Shown piece by piece: positions 4,255-19,629 of a stretch of DNA of 21,990 nt; positions within the stretch are counted from its first letter, which is position 1, and every line of letters starts with the position of its first letter. Below the pieces are notes generated by a model. The model had not been told where the DNA came from. It did no database searches and was given only the letters and a program-made list of their open reading frames with translations. The translations under genes and the position numbers were made by a program. Source of the DNA: an uncultured Nitrososphaerota archaeon (GTDB lineage: Archaea; Asgardarchaeota; Njordarchaeia; Njordarchaeales; Panguiarchaeaceae); assembly GCA_964636085.1 (NCBI GenBank), contig CAZWPQ010000034.1, positions 1 through 21,990 on the forward strand, read 5' to 3'.

Positions 4255-7200
4255 GTGTTTTTGAAGGAAGTGGAGCTCGTAGACTTTATGTGCCACAGGA
4301 AATTTATAATGAAGCCGAGCAGACTAACGTTAATATATGGCCGGAATGGTAGCGGGAAGTCAGCAATATTAGAGGCAATACATTTAGCATTTGGGGGCTT
4401 AGGTAGGGAGAGACAGGAGTTGCTGAGGGATTTTATAAGGTATGGTAAAACGAGGTCGCTAATTAGACTAAAACTCAATAATTCTGTAGCCCTTCCTGGA
4501 ATAGGTGTTATTTATCTAGACCCTAAATTGAGGCAGAATTCAGAGGTAATCATCGAACGAATCATTAAGCCAGAGCTAACTATATATAAAATCAATGGGC
4601 AAAAAGCGACTAAGGAGGAAGTGGTTACTTTACTTTCAAAGGTTAATATTTCTCCAAAGAATCCATTCTTCTTTGTTCCGCAAGAGAAGATAACGAAATT
4701 ATTAGAAATGAAGCCAGAAGAAAGATTAGACGCCATTATGGCGGGGTTAGGTCTATTAGAACTCAAACGAGCACTGTCAAAATTAAAAGATGAGATAAGG
4801 GGATATGAAAAAAGGAAGAGCGAGATTAAGAGAGAAATCGAAGAGCTTCAAAAAAATCTAGAAGAGCAAAAAAAAGTATTAGCCTCGGTAGAATCAGCAA
4901 TTCAAACACTCAAGAATTACTACGTTTACAAGTTGGCTCTGTTGTATAAGAAAAGACTTAGATATCTTGAGGAAGAAGAAGAGCTCCTCAAGAAAATAGA
5001 TGAATTGGAGAAGCGGATTAAGGATCATGAAAATTTCATCAATACTCTTCCCGACAAGTTAGCTAATATTAGTAAAGAAATAGGACAAATGCAGGAGGAA
5101 AAGGCGAAAATTATTGCTGAAGACCCAGAATTAGATAGAAAAATACGGGAATTAGAAGAGCGTGAGAAAGAATTATCATTAAAGATAAAGAATCTGGATA
5201 GTAAGCGTGCAAATATTCTAGAGAAAATGGAGACGATCCTTAAAAAATGGAGGGTCTCCACACTAGAGGACATGGAATCTCTTCTAAAGAGCAATGAGGA
5301 GAGGTTAGTTAAGTTGGAGGAATTGATAGAGAAAGCTGACGAAACAAGACAAATCAGGGAGCTTGAAAAGACGTTAAACATCAAAAAAAAGGAACTTAAA
5401 GAATTGGAGCGGATCCGAGTAGAGTATATAAAAAAGTTCGAAGAAATCATGAATCTGCTCGACCCAAGTGGGAATGTGCTCAAAGTTTACAACTTTGTGG
5501 TTAAAGAGGGGCTTACGGATGAAGTACAGGGTCCGCTGATATTGGAGATAGCGTTTAATATTGATAACACTAAACTAAAACAATATGCATATGCTATCGA
5601 AAGGGCGTTGGATAGAAAAATATTAAAATCGTTCGTGGCGCTGAGCTGGAGAGCTTTACGGAAGCTAATGGTGATTATAAAGAGGCTAGGTAGGGATCCC
5701 CCTACTGTATTTTTCTTTGGACATGGACGAGGTATGTGGAGTGGGGAGCATCAATTTGCGCATTTTCTATATGCGGTACCTGAAGAAATCTTTGATAAAT
5801 TTGAGGAGAGGAGGATAAAAATCATGGAAAAACTATCTAGCTTATCTTCATATGAAAGATCGGCCTTTATATGTTTATTGCCACAACTTATAGATGCCCC
5901 CCAAGCTACAAAAGCGATAATAGAATATTTTGCAGGGAGTACAGCTCTTGTGAGTAATTTGGATGCTGGAATCAGTCTTATGAGGAATATAGAGTTGGAT
6001 CGAATTGTTACTATCGATGGTGAAGTAGTTCAGCGATACCCGGTGGGAGAAGGAGCAATTTATTCTATGTTGCCTAAAATAGAGAATCCAACTGAAAATC
6101 CTGAAGAATCATTGATTTATAGGGCGCGAGAATTTAAGATGCAGGAATTTAGGAGAAAGAAGAGAGATCTTGATGATGCGATAAGCAACCTTAGAGATGA
6201 AATTAGAAACCTAGAAAGGCAAATAAGTATTCTCGAAAATAATCTCCCAACGAAAATAAGAAATCTATGGCTAGAGCGTTCTAAATTAAAAGATGCGATA
6301 TCGGAACTACGCCATGATATCCTGTACTTAGTAACTGCATACAAAGAAAGAAATCGTTTGCCTGAGCAGATTAGGAAGTTGGAATCTCAACTGGATAAAA
6401 TTGAGAAGCAGATCGTCGACTTGTGTAAGAAAAAAGATCTTTATGCCAAAAGACTAGTTGAGATAGACAGTAAAATAGGACAATTTGAGAAATATAAAGA
6501 AACACTAATTAGTCAGAAAGGAAAAATAATGGCCGAACTTGAAAAAATGAGGGAAGATGTTACGATTCTTAAAAGCAAAGTTGAGACTATTAGGAGATTT
6601 AAAAATAGTATTGAAGGCGAAATAGATAGTCTTAAAAGAGAAATACGGGCATTGACGTTAGTAGTATGGTCGACATTGAGTAGTAACAGAGAACATAATG
6701 TCAATGACGTGTTGGAAAAAGAGATAGTCGAGCCTGCAGCACTAATTATAAAGGAAATGAGTGAAAGTGAGTTAGAGGAAATAATCAAAAACTTCGATGA
6801 GAAGGGTATTGCGGATCTCCGCTTTGATATAATTTCGAGAGAAGAAAAAATACGAGCAATTGAACAAATTAGGAGTAAATTAGAGAAACATAAGGCCGAA
6901 CTTAATACTATCGAAAGAAGTATAGAATCTGCTAGGAGATTAGCAGAGAAGACATTAAATAGGCTGTTAGCTAGGTTAAGGGAGAAAATACGTGAGTTAT
7001 CGGAGAATTACAAATACGTCCTATCAAAAATAGGCGCAAAGGGCGACGTACAGCTAGTTGGTGATAAAATCGATCAAATGTGTCTTAAAATAACCATAGA
7101 TCTTCATAGGAACAAGCCTGTCGATATAAGCGAGGGAGCTTTCTCGTCAGGCGAAAAAACATTGGCTATTTTTGCCTTTATTATTGCCTTATTTTTAACG

Positions 7201-7479
7201 TCGCCAACCCCTATATTGATACTAGACGAATTTGATGTATATTTGGACGATTTAATGGTAGCATTGGCGGCAAAAATATTAAAGGAAGTGCTTTTAGATC
7301 TAAAATATGTTCAGTGCATATTGACAACAACGCATAGGGTAGAGCTTATGCGCGTCGCCGACGTCATAATTAACCTTGTGTACGATGAATCCGCCAAAAG
7401 TACAACTAGTTATGTTGTCCCGAAGAGGAGAATCGAAAAAATTGTTTCACGAGGATCTATCGCATCCATACAACCCTAA
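4255..7479 (+). CDS. SMC-family ATPase, Smc5/6-like
   Basis: N-head 'DFMCH...GRNGSGKSAILEAIHLAFGG', Q-loop 'FFVPQEK', two long coiled coils around a hinge-like region ('VQGPL...AIERAL..ILKSFV'), C-head 'FSSGEK...ILILDEFDVYLD...LTTTH'. GTG start. Confidence 0.9.
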   Translation: MFLKEVELVDFMCHRKFIMKPSRLTLIYGRNGSGKSAILEAIHLAFGGLGRERQELLRDFIRYGKTRSLIRLKLNNSVALPGIGVIYLDPKLRQNSEVIIERIIKPELTIYKINGQKATKEEVVTLLSKVNISPKNPFFFVPQEKITKLLEMKPEERLDAIMAGLGLLELKRALSKLKDEIRGYEKRKSEIKREIEELQKNLEEQKKVLASVESAIQTLKNYYVYKLALLYKKRLRYLEEEEELLKKIDELEKRIKDHENFINTLPDKLANISKEIGQMQEEKAKIIAEDPELDRKIRELEEREKELSLKIKNLDSKRANILEKMETILKKWRVSTLEDMESLLKSNEERLVKLEELIEKADETRQIRELEKTLNIKKKELKELERIRVEYIKKFEEIMNLLDPSGNVLKVYNFVVKEGLTDEVQGPLILEIAFNIDNTKLKQYAYAIERALDRKILKSFVALSWRALRKLMVIIKRLGRDPPTVFFFGHGRGMWSGEHQFAHFLYAVPEEIFDKFEERRIKIMEKLSSLSSYERSAFICLLPQLIDAPQATKAIIEYFAGSTALVSNLDAGISLMRNIELDRIVTIDGEVVQRYPVGEGAIYSMLPKIENPTENPEESLIYRAREFKMQEFRRKKRDLDDAISNLRDEIRNLERQISILENNLPTKIRNLWLERSKLKDAISELRHDILYLVTAYKERNRLPEQIRKLESQLDKIEKQIVDLCKKKDLYAKRLVEIDSKIGQFEKYKETLISQKGKIMAELEKMREDVTILKSKVETIRRFKNSIEGEIDSLKREIRALTLVVWSTLSSNREHNVNDVLEKEIVEPAALIIKEMSESELEEIIKNFDEKGIADLRFDIISREEKIRAIEQIRSKLEKHKAELNTIERSIESARRLAEKTLNRLLARLREKIRELSENYKYVLSKIGAKGDVQLVGDKIDQMCLKITIDLHRNKPVDISEGAFSSGEKTLAIFAFIIALFLTSPTPILILDEFDVYLDDLMVALAAKILKEVLLDLKYVQCILTTTHRVELMRVADVIINLVYDESAKSTTSYVVPKRRIEKIVSRGSIASIQP

Positions 7480-7484
7480 TTGAG

Positions 7485-8156
7485 GTGGTTGTCGTGTATG
7501 AAAAAGGTGAATACTATAAGACTATGCGGGGAATTGCCGAATTGATACGCCTTTTGAATTCATATATCTCAAGAAAGAGGGGTCATATTAATACAAGAGA
7601 AATATCAAACACATTGGAATCTCTGGTCAGAAAAGATGAGACACCTGACGTATTGATAAATAATGTCGACATGGGGATAAAATTTTTCAATACGCTCTGT
7701 AAATATTTTCCCGTGCGACTATCCGTCATACAGAAATTTATTTCTAGTCTAGAGAATATAACATACTTTCCATCGGTAATAGCGAAAATTGTTCTGAATC
7801 TCTCATTATCTGGCAAAATTAGAATGTATGGTGAGGTTAAAGTCCGGGGCATTACACTAGGGATCATAAAGAAAGGTATTAGAAGGCTTAGGGAAGTATG
7901 TGTTTCTTGCTCTAAACTAGAGCCCAGTTTTTATCCGCGACAAAGCATTGGAAAATTTGTTAGACTGTGTAACTTAGTTAATGATATAAAGACAGCGGTT
8001 GTGGAAAGGGATATAAAATCCTTAATTTATGGTGCCTCTCATCAGGAGCCTTTTCAAGTAGATCCATACATATTGGTTCATTCTCGAAAAGAAATTGTTT
8101 TAAAAATTCTGGCCGTACTGAAATATATGGGCGAAAAGGAGCTGGCGGGGGAATAA
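7485..8156 (+). CDS. Hypothetical protein, candidate non-SMC subunit
   Basis: 223-aa ORF 5 nt after smc; no family motif recognised. Confidence 0.6.
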   Translation: MVVVYEKGEYYKTMRGIAELIRLLNSYISRKRGHINTREISNTLESLVRKDETPDVLINNVDMGIKFFNTLCKYFPVRLSVIQKFISSLENITYFPSVIAKIVLNLSLSGKIRMYGEVKVRGITLGIIKKGIRRLREVCVSCSKLEPSFYPRQSIGKFVRLCNLVNDIKTAVVERDIKSLIYGASHQEPFQVDPYILVHSRKEIVLKILAVLKYMGEKELAGE

Positions 8157-8159
8157 AAG

Positions 8160-8720
8160 TTGGATAGTTCTAGATATGATAAGAATGATGTCATAAGGAG
8201 AATAGCCGCATTACTACTATTGGAGACACAAAGACACCATTATGTGTCAAGATCTAAAGTAGAATCCATTGCGAGGAAGTACAATATTTCTTTTGAGTCG
8301 ATTAAAGAGGAACTTGTCAAGAGATTTCACAGTGTAGGTATTGTGTTGAGGGAGGTGGAGGTAGAGAGAAGGAACAAGCGAAAGCGCATGCTTATATGTG
8401 TACTAGACCCAGAATTAGACCTAGATGCTAGTTTTATTGATCCAATAATGGCCGCAGTTTTGGCGATTATTTATGTTAGGACCAAGAGGGGGGAGATATT
8501 GATAGATGAGCTATATGATGAGATATCAAAATTGTTCGGTTCTGAAGAAATAAAGGCTAAAATATCGGAAATCCTAAGGGTGTTAGAAAAAAAGAAGTTG
8601 ATCAGTATAGACACTAAGGAGAGAATTATTAGATTGAAACCATTGGCAATAGCTATGATGCCTCCTAAAGATAAAATCGATAAGCTCCTATTGGATGTGT
8701 TAACGAGGCGTGAGGGGTAG
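8160..8720 (+). CDS. Tandem winged-helix (KITE; MAGE/Nse3- or ScpB-like) protein
   Basis: 'RRIAALLLL...VSRSKV...FESIKEELVKRFHSVGIVLREVE...LICVLD' then 'AAVLAIIYV...ILIDELYDEI...ILRVLEKKKLI' follows the WH-A/WH-B pattern of MAGE/Nse3; located in the smc operon. Confidence 0.6.
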   Translation: MDSSRYDKNDVIRRIAALLLLETQRHHYVSRSKVESIARKYNISFESIKEELVKRFHSVGIVLREVEVERRNKRKRMLICVLDPELDLDASFIDPIMAAVLAIIYVRTKRGEILIDELYDEISKLFGSEEIKAKISEILRVLEKKKLISIDTKERIIRLKPLAIAMMPPKDKIDKLLLDVLTRREG

Positions 8721-10029
8721 AAGCTTGGAAATATCCAAAATAAGGCCGCCCAGTTGGTATCCACTACAGCAGGTCAAGGGGGAGCTAAGTTTAGGAGAAT
8801 TGCTTGAGATTGCAAAAAAAAGAATTGATTTCCTAGTGAGTTGGAAGGCTGGAGAGATCCCAGATGATAGTTTAGATTATCTAAAAAATAATGCCCTCGG
8901 AAATCTTGCGTTGTGTATCGCGTCGGCAGTTACGGATGATGCATATTTTCGTAATTGGTTGCTAGAGACCGAAGCAGATTTTTTTGCTACGATGTTTAAA
9001 AAAGCATCTCCTTCTGCTAAGTTGGGTATATTGAATAAGGTTTTTGGCGGAATAATCGTAGGTCTGTCAGGAGTATCCGAATACCTAAATGTGTCGAGTG
9101 ATTTTATTCTAAATGAGCTTGCTACGATTCGTAGGGTGAAGAAGGAGTCATTTAATCAACTCGTTGGGACATTCGAGGGCTTCTCAGTGGCTGCAGCAAG
9201 ATTTGAGAAGGCATATAAGATAATAAGAAAGGAGAGTGGGCTTCTACTAGGGGGCTGGGTTGTAGCGCCCTTAATAGAGTTCTTTAGGATTGTAAAAGCA
9301 TGTTTTCAGAGTATAATGGAGCAGAGAATAAGAGAAATTAGAAAAAGAATTATGGGGGGTAATAAAAAGGAGGTATACGAAGGATATGCCCAAGAAGTTA
9401 TAGCATATTGGAGGGGTAAAAGAGCTAAGTTCGTAACGGCAAAATCTTATGTAAGCAGTGGTAGTAAGCTTTGGCAACGTCCGCATTTATTCCCGCCTTG
9501 CTCGAGAATATTATATGATAAATTTATGGCGACAGGATATATACCACATGGTGAGAGAGTACAATTAGCATTATTTTTGAAGGGCTTAGGTATGCCGCTT
9601 GAAGAGCAATTAAAGTTTTGGTACAAAGCTGTTGACAATATGGGTATTAGTTGGGATAATTATCTGAGGAAGGGGGGGTATTATATTCGTCATATATACG
9701 GTTTGGAAGGATCTAGGAAAGACTATAGTCCTCCTAAATGTGAAACAATAATATCAAGATACTTCTGCCCCTTTAGTAAATTAGATAGTTCTAGTCTGAG
9801 AGAAGTGTTGAAAAAGATTAATCCAAAAATAACTTCTGGTGCCTTGGACAGAATAATTGATGCGTGTATTATACATGAATTTACACGAGCGTGTACAATG
9901 TTTTTGGAGTCTATTACTGGTAAAACGCTAAGAAGGGGGTTTATAAGTCATCCCCTCCAATTCGTTAGGATCTTAAGTATCTATGAAAAAAAGAAGGGTG
10001 GTGGAAATAAACGGGCGAAAGTACCCTAG
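8710..10029 (+). CDS. priL: DNA primase large subunit (PriL/PRIM2-like, Fe-S domain)
   Basis: 'FPPC', 'HGERVQLALFLKGLG', 'YYIRHIYGLEGSRKDYSPPKC', 'CPF', 'AC', 'SHPLQF'. Confidence 0.92.
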   Translation: MRGRSLEISKIRPPSWYPLQQVKGELSLGELLEIAKKRIDFLVSWKAGEIPDDSLDYLKNNALGNLALCIASAVTDDAYFRNWLLETEADFFATMFKKASPSAKLGILNKVFGGIIVGLSGVSEYLNVSSDFILNELATIRRVKKESFNQLVGTFEGFSVAAARFEKAYKIIRKESGLLLGGWVVAPLIEFFRIVKACFQSIMEQRIREIRKRIMGGNKKEVYEGYAQEVIAYWRGKRAKFVTAKSYVSSGSKLWQRPHLFPPCSRILYDKFMATGYIPHGERVQLALFLKGLGMPLEEQLKFWYKAVDNMGISWDNYLRKGGYYIRHIYGLEGSRKDYSPPKCETIISRYFCPFSKLDSSSLREVLKKINPKITSGALDRIIDACIIHEFTRACTMFLESITGKTLRRGFISHPLQFVRILSIYEKKKGGGNKRAKVP

Positions 10030-10771
10030 AATGTTTTCTAGGGTATATCTGAGCGGATTTGATCCAGATAGACTAAAACAAAAAACTGTGGCTGTATTCG
10101 GAGTCGGGGGAATAGGAGCTTTAGTCGCCGAAATGCTCGCTAGGATGGGCGTTGGAAAAATAATAATAGTTGATAAGGATATAGTTGAGGAAGAAAATTT
10201 GAATAGGTTGGGGTATTATGTGTGTGATCTAGGGAAACCGAAGGTTGAGGTTCTAAAAAGGAGACTTGATGAGTTAAATAACATCCGTGGAAAAAATTTT
10301 CCATTGAAGGTAGAGGCGTATTATGTTAATATATTCGATTTTCCTGAGATTGGGGATATCGTGAAAAATAGTGATTGCATTATAGTGGCTTTTGACGATA
10401 TAGATGCTAGGCTTGAGGTAAACTCTGCGGCTCTAAAGTATAATAAAGTGTTGATAGATGGAGGGGCGTCCACAAATGGTTTAAGGGGTCGGGTAACTGT
10501 TGTAAAGCCTTATGTGTGGCCATGTCTAGGATGTCTATATTCGCCTGATGTATTGGTAAAGGAGGGTGAAGTAGACACGCTAACATGTAATGTTAGTCTG
10601 CCAACAACCATGGCGGTAATAGCTAGCATTCAGGTGGATCAATGTTTAAGATATCTCCTCAATAAGGGTGGATTAAGCCCGTTGACCTTGATATCTTTTG
10701 AGGATGGTATTATTATTACTAAATTTAATAGTCTGTCCAGAAGGGGCGACTGTCCATACTGCTCTAGGTGA
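9983..10771 (+). CDS. ThiF/MoeB/E1-family activating enzyme (UBA5-like)
   Basis: GVGGIG, 'DKDIVEEENLNR', 'GKPKV', 'FDDIDAR', CLGC and CPYC Zn pairs, 'TCNVSLPTTM'. True start may be a slightly later GTG. Confidence 0.9.
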   Translation: MKKRRVVEINGRKYPRMFSRVYLSGFDPDRLKQKTVAVFGVGGIGALVAEMLARMGVGKIIIVDKDIVEEENLNRLGYYVCDLGKPKVEVLKRRLDELNNIRGKNFPLKVEAYYVNIFDFPEIGDIVKNSDCIIVAFDDIDARLEVNSAALKYNKVLIDGGASTNGLRGRVTVVKPYVWPCLGCLYSPDVLVKEGEVDTLTCNVSLPTTMAVIASIQVDQCLRYLLNKGGLSPLTLISFEDGIIITKFNSLSRRGDCPYCSR

Positions 10772-11932: not shown

Positions 11933-14185
11933 ATGGTAAAGATCAAAGGAGCGGAAGAAATTCGTGGGTTAGTAAAAAAACTACCTCTAGAACAACGGAG
12001 AATATTTAGCATCACAGCTCATATAGATCATGGAAAAAGCACAATGTGTGATTTTTTGCTGGCGAGGGCTGGTCTTATGTCCCAAGAATTGGCTGGCGAG
12101 AAAAGGATGACAGACTACGATGAAGAGGAACAAAAGAGAATAATTACAATATTCACCACAGTAGTTAATCTACTCTATAAATATGGGGGGAAGGACTACC
12201 TAATACAGCTCAACGATACACCAGGCCACATATCATTCACAGGCGAAGTTTCAAGGGCAATACGTGCAAGTGATGGTATTATCTTATTGGTGGATGCTGT
12301 GGAAGGAGTAATGACACAGACAGTTACAAATTTAAGATTAGCCCTGCAAGAAGGATGTAAGCCCGTGCTATACATAAATAAGGTAGATAGGCTTATATCA
12401 GAATTAAGGTTAAGTCCCCAAGAAGTCGTAACACGTATCGACGCAATAATCAGAGAGGTAAATAAACTAATAGAAATGTATGCGCCAGAACCTTTCAAGA
12501 AGGAATGGAAAGTTAATTTTATGGAGGGCACTGTCGCTATTGGATCGGCGAAGGACGGGTGGGGTTTCACATCAGATATCCTTAAAAAGAAATTTGAAGA
12601 CCCCCGTGAGGGCTACATTAAGATCTTCAAAAAATATGAAGAAGGCGACATAAACTGGTTAAGAGAAAATCTACCCCTAGATGAGGCGATACTAGAGATG
12701 GTAATCAAGCACCTTCCAAGCCCCAAGGAGGCGCAAAAATACAAGATAGAGGCAATATGGCGGGGTAAGACGGATATAGACGTTTATGACGCACTAATTA
12801 ATGTGGATGCTAATGGCCCTCTCGTAGGTATGATTACGAAGATTTTCGTTCATCCTAGAACATTTCAAACTGTTCTAATTGGTAGAGTATGGTCTGGGAC
12901 ACTTACAAATGATGTAGAGTTATATCTTTTGAGCAAGGGAACCACAGCAAGGCCTCATCGACTTGGGGTTATGGAGATAACGGATATATTAGATGTCGAT
13001 GCGATACCAGCAGGAAACCTATTTGCCATGACGGGCTTTTTAGTTCCCGCGGGCGAAAGTTTTGTGACGGCAGAACTCTATAATGAATACAAGGACATAA
13101 TAGAGGCAGGAGAATTCGGTTTCGAACCCATCCCATATGCTAGCGAACCAGTTGTTTCTAGAGCAATTAGGCCAAAAGACCCTAATGAGCTAGATACGTT
13201 AGCTAGAGTTGCAGAAATGTGGGTGGCTGCTGATCCAACAGCAAAATTTTATCTGGATAGGGAATCCAATCAATACATCCTAGCGGGCGTGGATCCATTG
13301 CAACTAGAGATCCTTATAAAGAGGATAGGCATGAAGGTCCCTGTCGAGGTGGACGAACCAATAATAGTATATAGAGAGCGTGTCGAAAAAAGCGGGATTG
13401 AGGTCACTACGAAATCTCCAAATGCACTTAATCGTCTAACACTATATGTCGAACCACTGAGCAATGATGTTGCTGATGCTATAAGGAAAGGCCTGATAAA
13501 GGAGGAGCAAGACCCCAAGGCCAGAGCTAGGATACTCAGGGAGAACTTTGGATGGGAAACGCATTTGGCGCGCAATATAATTGCTATAGAGGAGACAAAC
13601 ATACTTATTAATGCGACGGTTGGTGTCCAAAGATTTGATAGGATCAAGGACTATATAATAGCAACATTTAGGGACTTTTGTAGAGGTGGACCTCTCGCTA
13701 AGGAACCAATACAGCATATGAAGGTAGTGATAACCGATGCTGTTGTTCACGAAGACCCGGTGCATACTCAGATGGGACAAATATTTCCAATGACTTTCTC
13801 TGCGTTAGCTGTGTCATTCTTAACAGGGAATCCAGCAATATTTGAACCAGTGCTAAGAGTAGATGTTAAGGCACCACAAAGATTCATGGGACCGCTAATA
13901 ACTCTGCTATCACAAAGAAGGGGCAGGATATATGAATCAACAATAGAGGGCGAAGATGTACATATAATAGCTCATGTACCCGTACCCGAAACACTTGATT
14001 TAGCCGAAAGATTAAGGTCTATAACAAGTGGAAGGGCGTTCTTTGGATACCAATTCGAGACATGGTGGCGTGTGCCTGATTCAATGCAGGCTGATTTGAT
14101 ACGTAATATAAGGAGAAGGAAGAAACTAAAGGAAGAACCTCCAACAGTGAAAGATTTCGAAAGATTTATCTACCAACGAACATGA
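11933..14185 (+). CDS. fusA: Translation elongation factor aEF-2 (divergent)
   Basis: AHIDHGKST, DTPGH, NKVD, 'KSPN..NRL', 'HEDPVH', 'LRSITSGRA'; GGAGGTGG Shine-Dalgarno upstream. Confidence 0.95.
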   Translation: MVKIKGAEEIRGLVKKLPLEQRRIFSITAHIDHGKSTMCDFLLARAGLMSQELAGEKRMTDYDEEEQKRIITIFTTVVNLLYKYGGKDYLIQLNDTPGHISFTGEVSRAIRASDGIILLVDAVEGVMTQTVTNLRLALQEGCKPVLYINKVDRLISELRLSPQEVVTRIDAIIREVNKLIEMYAPEPFKKEWKVNFMEGTVAIGSAKDGWGFTSDILKKKFEDPREGYIKIFKKYEEGDINWLRENLPLDEAILEMVIKHLPSPKEAQKYKIEAIWRGKTDIDVYDALINVDANGPLVGMITKIFVHPRTFQTVLIGRVWSGTLTNDVELYLLSKGTTARPHRLGVMEITDILDVDAIPAGNLFAMTGFLVPAGESFVTAELYNEYKDIIEAGEFGFEPIPYASEPVVSRAIRPKDPNELDTLARVAEMWVAADPTAKFYLDRESNQYILAGVDPLQLEILIKRIGMKVPVEVDEPIIVYRERVEKSGIEVTTKSPNALNRLTLYVEPLSNDVADAIRKGLIKEEQDPKARARILRENFGWETHLARNIIAIEETNILINATVGVQRFDRIKDYIIATFRDFCRGGPLAKEPIQHMKVVITDAVVHEDPVHTQMGQIFPMTFSALAVSFLTGNPAIFEPVLRVDVKAPQRFMGPLITLLSQRRGRIYESTIEGEDVHIIAHVPVPETLDLAERLRSITSGRAFFGYQFETWWRVPDSMQADLIRNIRRRKKLKEEPPTVKDFERFIYQRT

Positions 14186-14218
14186 AACCATGGAAGCTAA
14201 AACCATTTTTTCTAAAAA

Positions 14219-14226
14219 TTTATATA
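14219..14226 (+). promoter_or_regulatory. Candidate TATA box for the tRNA-Ser/sRNA/tRNA-Lys unit
   Basis: TTTATATA preceded by an A-rich BRE-like run, about 40 nt before the tRNA. Confidence 0.5.
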
Positions 14227-14265: not shown

Positions 14266-14368
14266 GCCGGGGTTGCCGAGCTGGTACGGCGTCGGCCTGC
14301 TAGACGAGCGGCCATTGTAGAAAGCCGATGGCGTTTTCGCCTCGCGGGTTCGAGTCCCGCCCCCGGCA
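14266..14368 (+). tRNA. tRNA-Ser(GCT) with 20-nt intron at 37/38 (14303-14322)
   Basis: Acceptor GCCGGGG/CCCCGGC; anticodon stem TCGGC/GCCGA; loop CT-GCT-A|A; long variable arm GGCG-TTTT-CGCC; T arm GCGGG-TTCGAGT-CCCGC; splice helix CTGC/GTAG with AAA bulge. Confidence 0.9.
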
Positions 14369-14429
14369 TTTTGAATGATGAAGGTTCAACCAACTGAGCA
14401 CTGTGATGAATGCATGTCTTGCTGAAAAA
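14369..14429 (+). ncRNA. Box C/D guide sRNA
   Basis: C ATGATGA (14375-81), 12-nt guide, D' CTGA (14394-97), C' GTGATGA (14403-09), 12-nt guide, D CTGA (14422-25); TTTT/AAAA terminal stem. Confidence 0.92.
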
Positions 14430-14448
14430 CGGACTTGCCCCAGAGTTT

Positions 14449-14523
14449 GGGCCGGTAGCTCAGCCTGGGTAGAGCGTCCGGCTCTTAACCGGACGGTCGC
14501 GGGTTCAAATCCCGCCCGGCCCA
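14449..14523 (+). tRNA. tRNA-Lys(CTT)
   Basis: GGGCCGG/CCGGCCC acceptor; TCCGG-CT CTT AA-CCGGA anticodon arm; GGTTCAAATCC T loop. Confidence 0.96.
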
Positions 14524-14610
14524 TTTGTGTAGTTATTTTCCTTTACTCGTGTAGGTAACGCTCATATATATCTTTTTATTAAGGTCTCATTAAAGTTAGT
14601 TTGAACTTAG

Positions 14611-19294: not shown

Positions 19295-19327
19295 GGCATT
19301 AGGATATAGTATTATTTTGGACATAGC

Positions 19328-19488
19328 AATGGCACGGGGGCCGAAAGCTAAGCCGCGCCACGCCGATCCGAGTAGTCTGGTGGGAGACCCCAGGCGAAAG
19401 GACGGTGCTGTCCGCCCTTTGGGGTGGACGGCCATAGGGCGCGGGCTACGCCCGAACCCATTCCGAACTCGGAAACTCCCGTGCCATT
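19328..19488 (+). rRNA. rrf: 5S rRNA gene, circularly permuted (3' part 19347-19413, linker hairpin, 5' part 19426-19474), within a processing stem
   Basis: 5' hallmarks GGACGGCCATAG...CCCGAACCCATTCCGAACTCGGAA lie downstream of 3' hallmarks GCTAAGCC...AGTA...TGGGAGACC...GCGAAA...GGTGCTGTCC; helices I-V all pair. Confidence 0.92.
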
Positions 19489-19491
19489 TTT
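19487..19491 (+). terminator. Oligo-T terminator candidate after the 5S precursor
   Basis: T5 run at the end of the terminal stem. Confidence 0.4.
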
Positions 19492-19629
19492 ATATCGTGA
19501 GGTTATGATTGTCTTTTTAGGGCGTCTCGCTTTTGTAAGAATATAACCCAGTGGAAATAGATGATATCTAATAGATGTTGATCTATCCTGTATGTTATCA
19601 ACTTAGCCTTTTTTAATAAAATCTTCGTC

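Follow-up and report, generated by a model that had tools for sequence, protein, structure and literature searches.

A box C/D sRNA gene between two tRNA genes

The window, by which we mean the whole stretch of 21,990 nucleotides that was analysed, is a contig (C34) of a 2.41-Mb metagenome-assembled genome (MAG) of the Njordarchaeales that is 83% complete. Its EF-2 gene shows 86-88% identity to proteins from MAGs labelled Ca. Njordarchaeota, compared to 57-58% for Baldrarchaeota. At positions 14375-14425 it contains a canonical archaeal double-guide C/D sRNA gene, which is located between an intron-containing tRNA-Ser(GCT) and a tRNA-Lys(CTT). The boxes C, D', C' and D follow each other in this order, as had been described in the original prediction, fit the motifs RUGAUGA and CUGA and enclose two guides of 12 nt. 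Box C begins 6 nt past the tRNA-Ser discriminator and box D ends 23 nt before tRNA-Lys; the 19 nt given earlier were counted from the end point chosen then, and the spacing is the same. The distance from box C to box D is 51 nt and the whole RNA amounts to approximately 60 nt, with four A directly 3' of box D which could pair weakly with the 5' U run. The features of the locus are as follows:

14212-14226, forward strand: probable archaeal promoter of a purine-rich BRE and a TATA box (TTTATATA at 14219-14226), putative in function
14266-14368, forward strand: tRNA-Ser(GCT) (Rfam RF00005, 48.7 bits), discriminator A at 14368, CCA not encoded
14369-14374, forward strand: 6-nt spacer, predicted 5' end of the sRNA after putative tRNase Z cleavage
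14375-14381, forward strand: box C
14382-14393, forward strand: D' guide, 12 nt; D'+5 base A14389, predicted target 16S U8 (E. coli U13) in the helix 1/central pseudoknot strand
14394-14397, forward strand: box D'
14403-14409, forward strand: box C'
14410-14421, forward strand: D guide, 12 nt; D+5 base T14417, predicted target 16S A49 (E. coli A53)
14422-14425, forward strand: box D
14426-14448, forward strand: 23-nt spacer, comprising the sRNA tail and the tRNA-Lys leader
14449-14523, forward strand: tRNA-Lys(CTT) (Rfam)
14533-14544, forward strand: U-rich tract, possible archaeal terminator

A search of the genome for a strict C-D'-C'-D pattern gave nine matches, compared to 0, 0, 0, 0 and 1 in five shuffled versions, and the gene at 14375-14425 was the only one located near a tRNA, with which a relaxed scan agreed. 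When the sRNA stretch was searched against Rfam, no family reached its gathering score, but the best matches below threshold were archaeal C/D families (E ~1e-5). The family sR14 (RF01145; gathering threshold 38 bits) was absent among the matches for this stretch and exceeded its cut-off in none of 101 genomes. Thermodynamic folding was uninformative (z ~ +0.6), as expected because C/D RNAs are folded by proteins. The proteins L7Ae, Nop5 and fibrillarin are encoded in the genome, all scoring over cut-off.

For comparison, four congeneric genomes (G001-G004) and nine more genomes of the order were used. Each of the five genomes of the genus has the order tRNA-Ser, sRNA, tRNA-Lys, with identical boxes and guide cores and differing spacers. 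Among 121 genomes, only those of this genus contained the D-guide pattern, and a search of 400 Asgard genomes with the pattern of box C and guide revealed no true match outside the genus except a variant in two genomes of a sister family. Nine further matches in Asgard genomes outside the genus had neither the second half of the sRNA nor a neighbouring tRNA and were treated as chance matches.

About ten more unannotated C/D sRNAs with plausible 16S, 23S or tRNA targets were seen on the G000 contigs C1, C3, C4, C5, C6, C7, C10, C15 and C31, one aiming at the wobble base of tRNA-Lys(TTT) and one at tRNA-Trp. Four C/D sRNA genes within ~500 nt are located at L231 (G005 contig C271). Elsewhere in the window (4255-10771 and 11933-14185), an SMC-like, two unknown, a PriL-like and a ThiF/E1-like gene lie in a row, and an EF-2 in these stretches scores below the aEF-2 cut-off. 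The 5S rRNA gene at 19319-19517 of the forward strand was found as two partial Rfam matches, with the 3' half ahead of the 5' half; the same swapped order was observed in G001 and G004, ~100-130 nt past the tRNA-Gly of the run tRNA-Ser, sRNA, tRNA-Lys, tRNA-Gly.

Proposed transcription and maturation within the tRNA run

The BRE/TATA-like element is located 40 nt upstream of tRNA-Ser. TATA-like motifs were found about 45 nt upstream of tRNA-Ser in three of the four congeners and further upstream in G004, and a scan for promoters and terminators of the bacterial type gave nothing useful. The spacer between the discriminator and box C measures 5-9 nt in the five genomes, and the distance from box D to tRNA-Lys is 6 nt in G002 and G003 (in G003 read from the alignment), 23 nt in G004 and the present genome, and 36 nt in G001. 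Since an upstream spacer of 5-9 nt and a downstream spacer of 6 nt, as seen in two genomes, leave no room for separate promoters, a single precursor is likely. The arrangement is that of a tRNA-sRNA polycistron, in which the sRNA immediately follows a tRNA in the same orientation and no space for a promoter is left between them. In G001 and G004, tRNA-Gly directly follows tRNA-Lys.

We propose that the one upstream TATA promoter would give rise to a tRNA-Ser-sRNA-tRNA-Lys transcript, which would continue into tRNA-Gly in G001 and G004. Cleavage by tRNase Z after the tRNA-Ser discriminator would generate the 5' end of the sRNA, and cleavage by RNase P before tRNA-Lys would leave a nearly mature 3' end where the spacer is 6 nt; the 23-nt tail in the present genome would be trimmed. 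In this way, tRNA maturation would free a piece of 80 nt; its 5' end would probably be final, and its 3' end would here need further trimming. A release by tRNase Z and RNase P would fit the layout, as the original prediction had assumed. RNase P RNA is encoded in all five genomes of the genus, and so is a near-full-length RNase Z-like gene (E ~1e-74 to 1e-81), albeit with 248 bits against the TIGR02651 cut-off of 293 bits.

The guide could also be made but freed by trimming up to the protected boxes, without tRNase Z and RNase P setting its ends; its place between tRNAs would then provide only a strong promoter. We regard this as unlikely but worth serious consideration. In Sulfolobus, the flanks of such RNAs can be changed without effect on maturation (PMC7994747), the downstream spacer ranges from 6 to 36 nt, and the guide of the sister family as well as the other strict C/D genes of this genome stand alone. 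On the other hand, tRNA maturation must cut both ends of the 80-nt interval anyway and the 5' spacer is held within a few nucleotides in five genomes, and the two routes differ only in which step sets the final ends.

The tRNA-Ser gene contains an intron of 20 nt after position 37 (about 14303-14322). ARAGORN gave the anticodon as AGA; GCT was read from the orthologues, which carry other introns. The length of the tRNA-Ser(GCT) intron differs among the congeners (L027, L028, L029, L030) and in G003 the intron is located in the D-loop; a D-loop insertion in tRNA-Lys is present in G001 only. The discriminator of tRNA-Ser is usually G; the type II tRNA-Ser genes of this genome (window position 14368 and contigs C1, C6 and C24) carry A, like the tRNA-Leu genes.

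Predicted target sites of the two guides in 16S rRNA

In the MAG, 16S and 23S rRNA are unassembled except for ~260 nt from the 3' end of 23S, which lie at the terminus of contig C1 and are 88% identical to G001. The 16S of G001 is the only assembled 16S of the genus and was used as stand-in for the target; it shares its 410-kb contig with the genes for 23S and RNase P RNA. Because most of the other strict C/D genes find 9-11 pairs in the rRNA of G001, this genome is a fair stand-in, and the species' own 16S presumably matches it. At this locus (L206, L211, L010; G001 contig C11 390761-396110), 23S and tRNA-Ala are convergent with the 16S on the opposite strand and do not form one operon with it; the 16S has its own long leader-trailer stem.

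The 16S of G001 starts with GGTTGAACCT and reads AAGACATGC 40 nt further on. Thus, both variants of the 16S consensus that had been predicted from the guides are indeed present in the congener. The guides were then scanned in D+5 register against the 16S and 23S of G001 and the tRNAs of this genome, and the best sites were those of the original prediction: the D' guide formed 10 Watson-Crick pairs at 16S U8 (next best 7 plus one G-U) and the D guide 10 Watson-Crick pairs plus one G-U at 16S A49 (next best 7 plus one). Both guides directly abut their D' or D box, and the base at +5 forms a Watson-Crick pair in each case. Sites in 23S or tRNAs were rejected as alternative targets because of their pairing length. 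A better perfect target elsewhere, which would have spoken against the prediction, was seen neither in 16S, 23S and tRNAs nor as a 12-mer in the genome; for 5S and mRNAs, the comparison covered 12-mer matches allowing up to one mismatch. With shuffled guides, 10 pairs were obtained in 6 and 20 of 1500 trials, and no trial yielded both within 100 nt.

Pairing in register thus held for both guides, but extended over 10-11 pairs per guide with the 16S of the congener and not over the full 12. The two bases of the D' guide adjoining box D' mismatch the G001 16S, so that the duplex between the guide of this genome and the 16S of its congener has two pairs only on the box side of the target, and the base adjoining box D forms a G-U pair. 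The guide of G001 itself forms 11 Watson-Crick pairs with its own 16S. The calculated energy of the D' duplex was -17.0 kcal/mol with the 16S of G001 compared to -13.1 kcal/mol with a standard Asgard 16S, and that of the D duplex -15.3 compared to -9.2 kcal/mol. The predicted targets are 41 nt apart in the 16S 5' domain and correspond in a published alignment to U13 and A53 of E. coli (Dennis et al., PMC4644070). A limited search of the open-access literature gave no report of a measured Um8 or Am49 in archaea.

Apparent covariation of the D' guide with a changed central pseudoknot

Position 12 of the 16S (E. coli U17), which lies within the segment paired by the D' guide, is A in G001. A U occupies this position in the 13 other Asgard 16S starts that were parsed, and likewise in the seven archaea aligned by Dennis et al. 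(PMC4644070). In G001, the pseudoknot partner strand of position 12 reads GGTTTAGG in place of GGAATTGG, and an A in the strand opposite the changed helix-28 base is replaced by U. Altogether, the G001 16S (L010, minus strand) carries compensated changes at positions 12, 877-880 and 1358, at the normally conserved junction of the central pseudoknot and helix 28; we take the changed sites of the partner strands to be equivalent to E. coli 918, 919, 921 and 1396. Such compensated changes were found in no other Asgard 16S fetched. Since A12 is structurally compensated, it is not an assembly error. The pseudoknot strands of G001 can form 8 pairs instead of 4. A49, the predicted target of the D guide, is not rare; six further Asgard loci have it as well.

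Every one of the five genomes of the genus carries the guide base that forms the pair with A12. The two sister-family genomes (G009 and G012) encode a C/D sRNA that stands alone; its D' guide is the same one in standard form and its D guide differs, and the one 16S of that family has the standard pseudoknot partner strand, its 5' end being missing from the assembly. Guide and rRNA therefore appear to co-vary, as judged from one 16S per family, that of the sister family lacking the 5' end. No guide to the 3' pseudoknot strand was found in this genome that could serve as a second, independent indicator of its own 16S. When metagenomes were scanned for the variant 16S start, chance matches dominated, and none of the 80 loci checked was a 16S. 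The sister-family sRNA (L240:1490-1550, minus strand, and L241:1488-1544, plus strand) has a non-canonical D box, and its D guide has no good target in the rRNAs of G001.

The guide proved right in predicting a rare change of the central pseudoknot that turned out to be compensated. This indicates that guides can report on rRNA that is unassembled in MAGs.

Probable function of the sRNA

Taken together, the sequence comparisons indicate that the RNA is very probably a conventional double-guide C/D sRNA that is cotranscribed with tRNAs, bound by L7Ae, Nop5 and fibrillarin, and methylates 16S U8 and A49. L7Ae, Nop5 and fibrillarin would assemble on both box pairs, and the guides would direct 2'-O-methylation of U8 and A49 on the nascent rRNA. 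Transient pairing across helices 1-3 may, in addition, aid local folding.

The original prediction had offered a chaperone of rRNA folding as an alternative. U3 pairs with the 5' strand of the small subunit (SSU) central pseudoknot; it comprises at least 200 nt, pairs via a 5' domain and via hinges to the spacer, and guides no methylation. The D' guide covers 16S nt 6-15 and, therefore, also pairs with this strand, and it could in a U3-like manner mainly serve to keep the 5' strand off its pseudoknot partner during small-subunit assembly, with methylation being secondary or absent. Pairing by the D' guide extends over the 5' strands of helices 1 and 2 and is, with -17 kcal/mol, more stable than the helix 1 hairpin (-7.5 kcal/mol) or the pseudoknot strands (-8.2 kcal/mol), the pseudoknot of this lineage can form twice the usual number of pairs, and the guide matches the 16S variant. 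Moreover, chaperone roles have been proposed for double-guide sRNAs in general (Dennis et al., PMC4644070).

We nevertheless consider this function improbable. A guide to U8 cannot avoid covering this segment, and the U3 site is therefore overlapped as a consequence of the target. Similar guides also occur in a ciliate and other archaea (Ignicoccus sR155, Methanopyrus sR31, Pyrobaculum sR19 and Tetrahymena TtnuCD24). The two guides of the sRNA run right up to the D and D' boxes and form a Watson-Crick pair at +5, the 3' strand of the pseudoknot is contacted by neither, and the 51 nt from box C to box D include no 5' domain and no room for hinges. Furthermore, the near confinement of the pattern to one genus among 400 Asgard genomes is unlike what is expected for an essential factor. 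An identity with U3 itself was rejected: with 80 nt between the tRNAs and box C only 6 nt in, there is no long 5' domain with boxes A'/A and hinges, both guides are in D+5 register, and no Rfam match to the U3 family was found in the sRNA stretch. It is likewise improbable that the sRNA is needed to hold open the 5' strand of the rewritten pseudoknot and to time pseudoknot formation, as a minimal archaeal U3-like RNA whose supply is tied to tRNA processing. The missing archaeal U3 is not supplied by this RNA.

That the D guide alone works in this genome, or that the true targets belong to another RNA, is also very unlikely: the two bases adjoining box D' do vary among the congeners and mismatch the G001 16S here, but the nine-base core of the D' guide is invariant in all five genomes, including the base for the rare 16S variant, no rival site in 16S, 23S or tRNAs exceeds 7-8 pairs, and the genome contains no perfect 12-mer target elsewhere.

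Comparison with known systems

The sRNA shares with the archaeal double-guide box C/D sRNAs (Dennis et al. 2015, PMC4644070; Lui et al. 2018, PMC6009581) its size, the four consensus boxes, guides of 12 nt, a Watson-Crick pair at D+5 and two targets less than 100 nt apart. In Pyrobaculum, 72% of the rRNA-targeting sRNAs have both targets within 100 nt (PMC6009581). The same 16S segment is targeted by Mka sR31 (C4/C28), Pca sR19 (U15/G42) and Pca sR116 (G19/U39), and U52 of this segment by Sac sR1 and Pca sR18 (PMC4644070; PMC6009581). The parts of the published sRNA target tables that were searched contain no entry for 16S U8 or 16S C49 (PMC4644070, PMC6009581), and in these parts the pair of U8 and A49 was not found. 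The match of its guide to the lineage-specific A12 also sets the sRNA of the window apart from the published double-guide sRNAs. A match of a guide to a flipped pseudoknot pair was not found described in a limited search of the open-access literature.

By reading of their sequences, sR155 of I. hospitalis and TtnuCD24 of Tetrahymena (consensus of Rfam RF02300) also have a guide to the SSU 5' segment at the D or D' box, in the register of U8. sR14 (RF01145) is possibly another SSU U8 guide; its consensus resembles the D' guide of the sRNA, and the sister-family sRNA matches this family with 24.5 bits. Unlike the sRNA of the window, sR155, TtnuCD24 and sR14 have the standard base opposite position 12 and unrelated second guides. 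IHOsR155 is listed in additional file 1 of PMC4644070 as lacking a predicted target; by our own reading, its D guide is nonetheless complementary to the 16S 5' end in U8 register.

The eukaryotic U3 snoRNA is an RNA of the box C/D class that acts on the SSU central pseudoknot, and U3-type RNPs are not known in archaea (PMC8339473). In contrast to U3, the RNA described here has only ~60 nt and pairs via its D-box guides in methylation register.

tRNA-sRNA dicistrons have been described for tRNA-Val-sR8 of N. equitans (PMC3491384), tRNA-Ser-sRNA of I. hospitalis and tRNA-Pro-sRNA of T. tenax (PMC7994747) and tRNA-Met-sR44 of Pyrobaculum (PMC6009581). As in these and in the tRNA-snoRNA genes of plants, the sRNA starts a few bases past the tRNA, so tRNase Z can make its 5' end, and in the dicistron of I. 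hospitalis the upstream tRNA is likewise tRNA-Ser. In contrast to the known dicistrons, a second tRNA follows, so RNase P can also cut on the 3' side, and the guides are unrelated. A limited search of the open-access literature revealed no published archaeal tRNA-sRNA-tRNA case, and a study of C/D sRNAs in the Asgard group was not found in the literature search. The sRNA described here adds a well-supported C/D guide of the Asgard group with predicted marks at 16S U8 and A49, and it extends the archaeal tRNA-sRNA dicistrons to a conserved tRNA-sRNA-tRNA unit. The guide is of a known kind, to which this arrangement and the apparent covariation with a changed ribosomal core add modestly.
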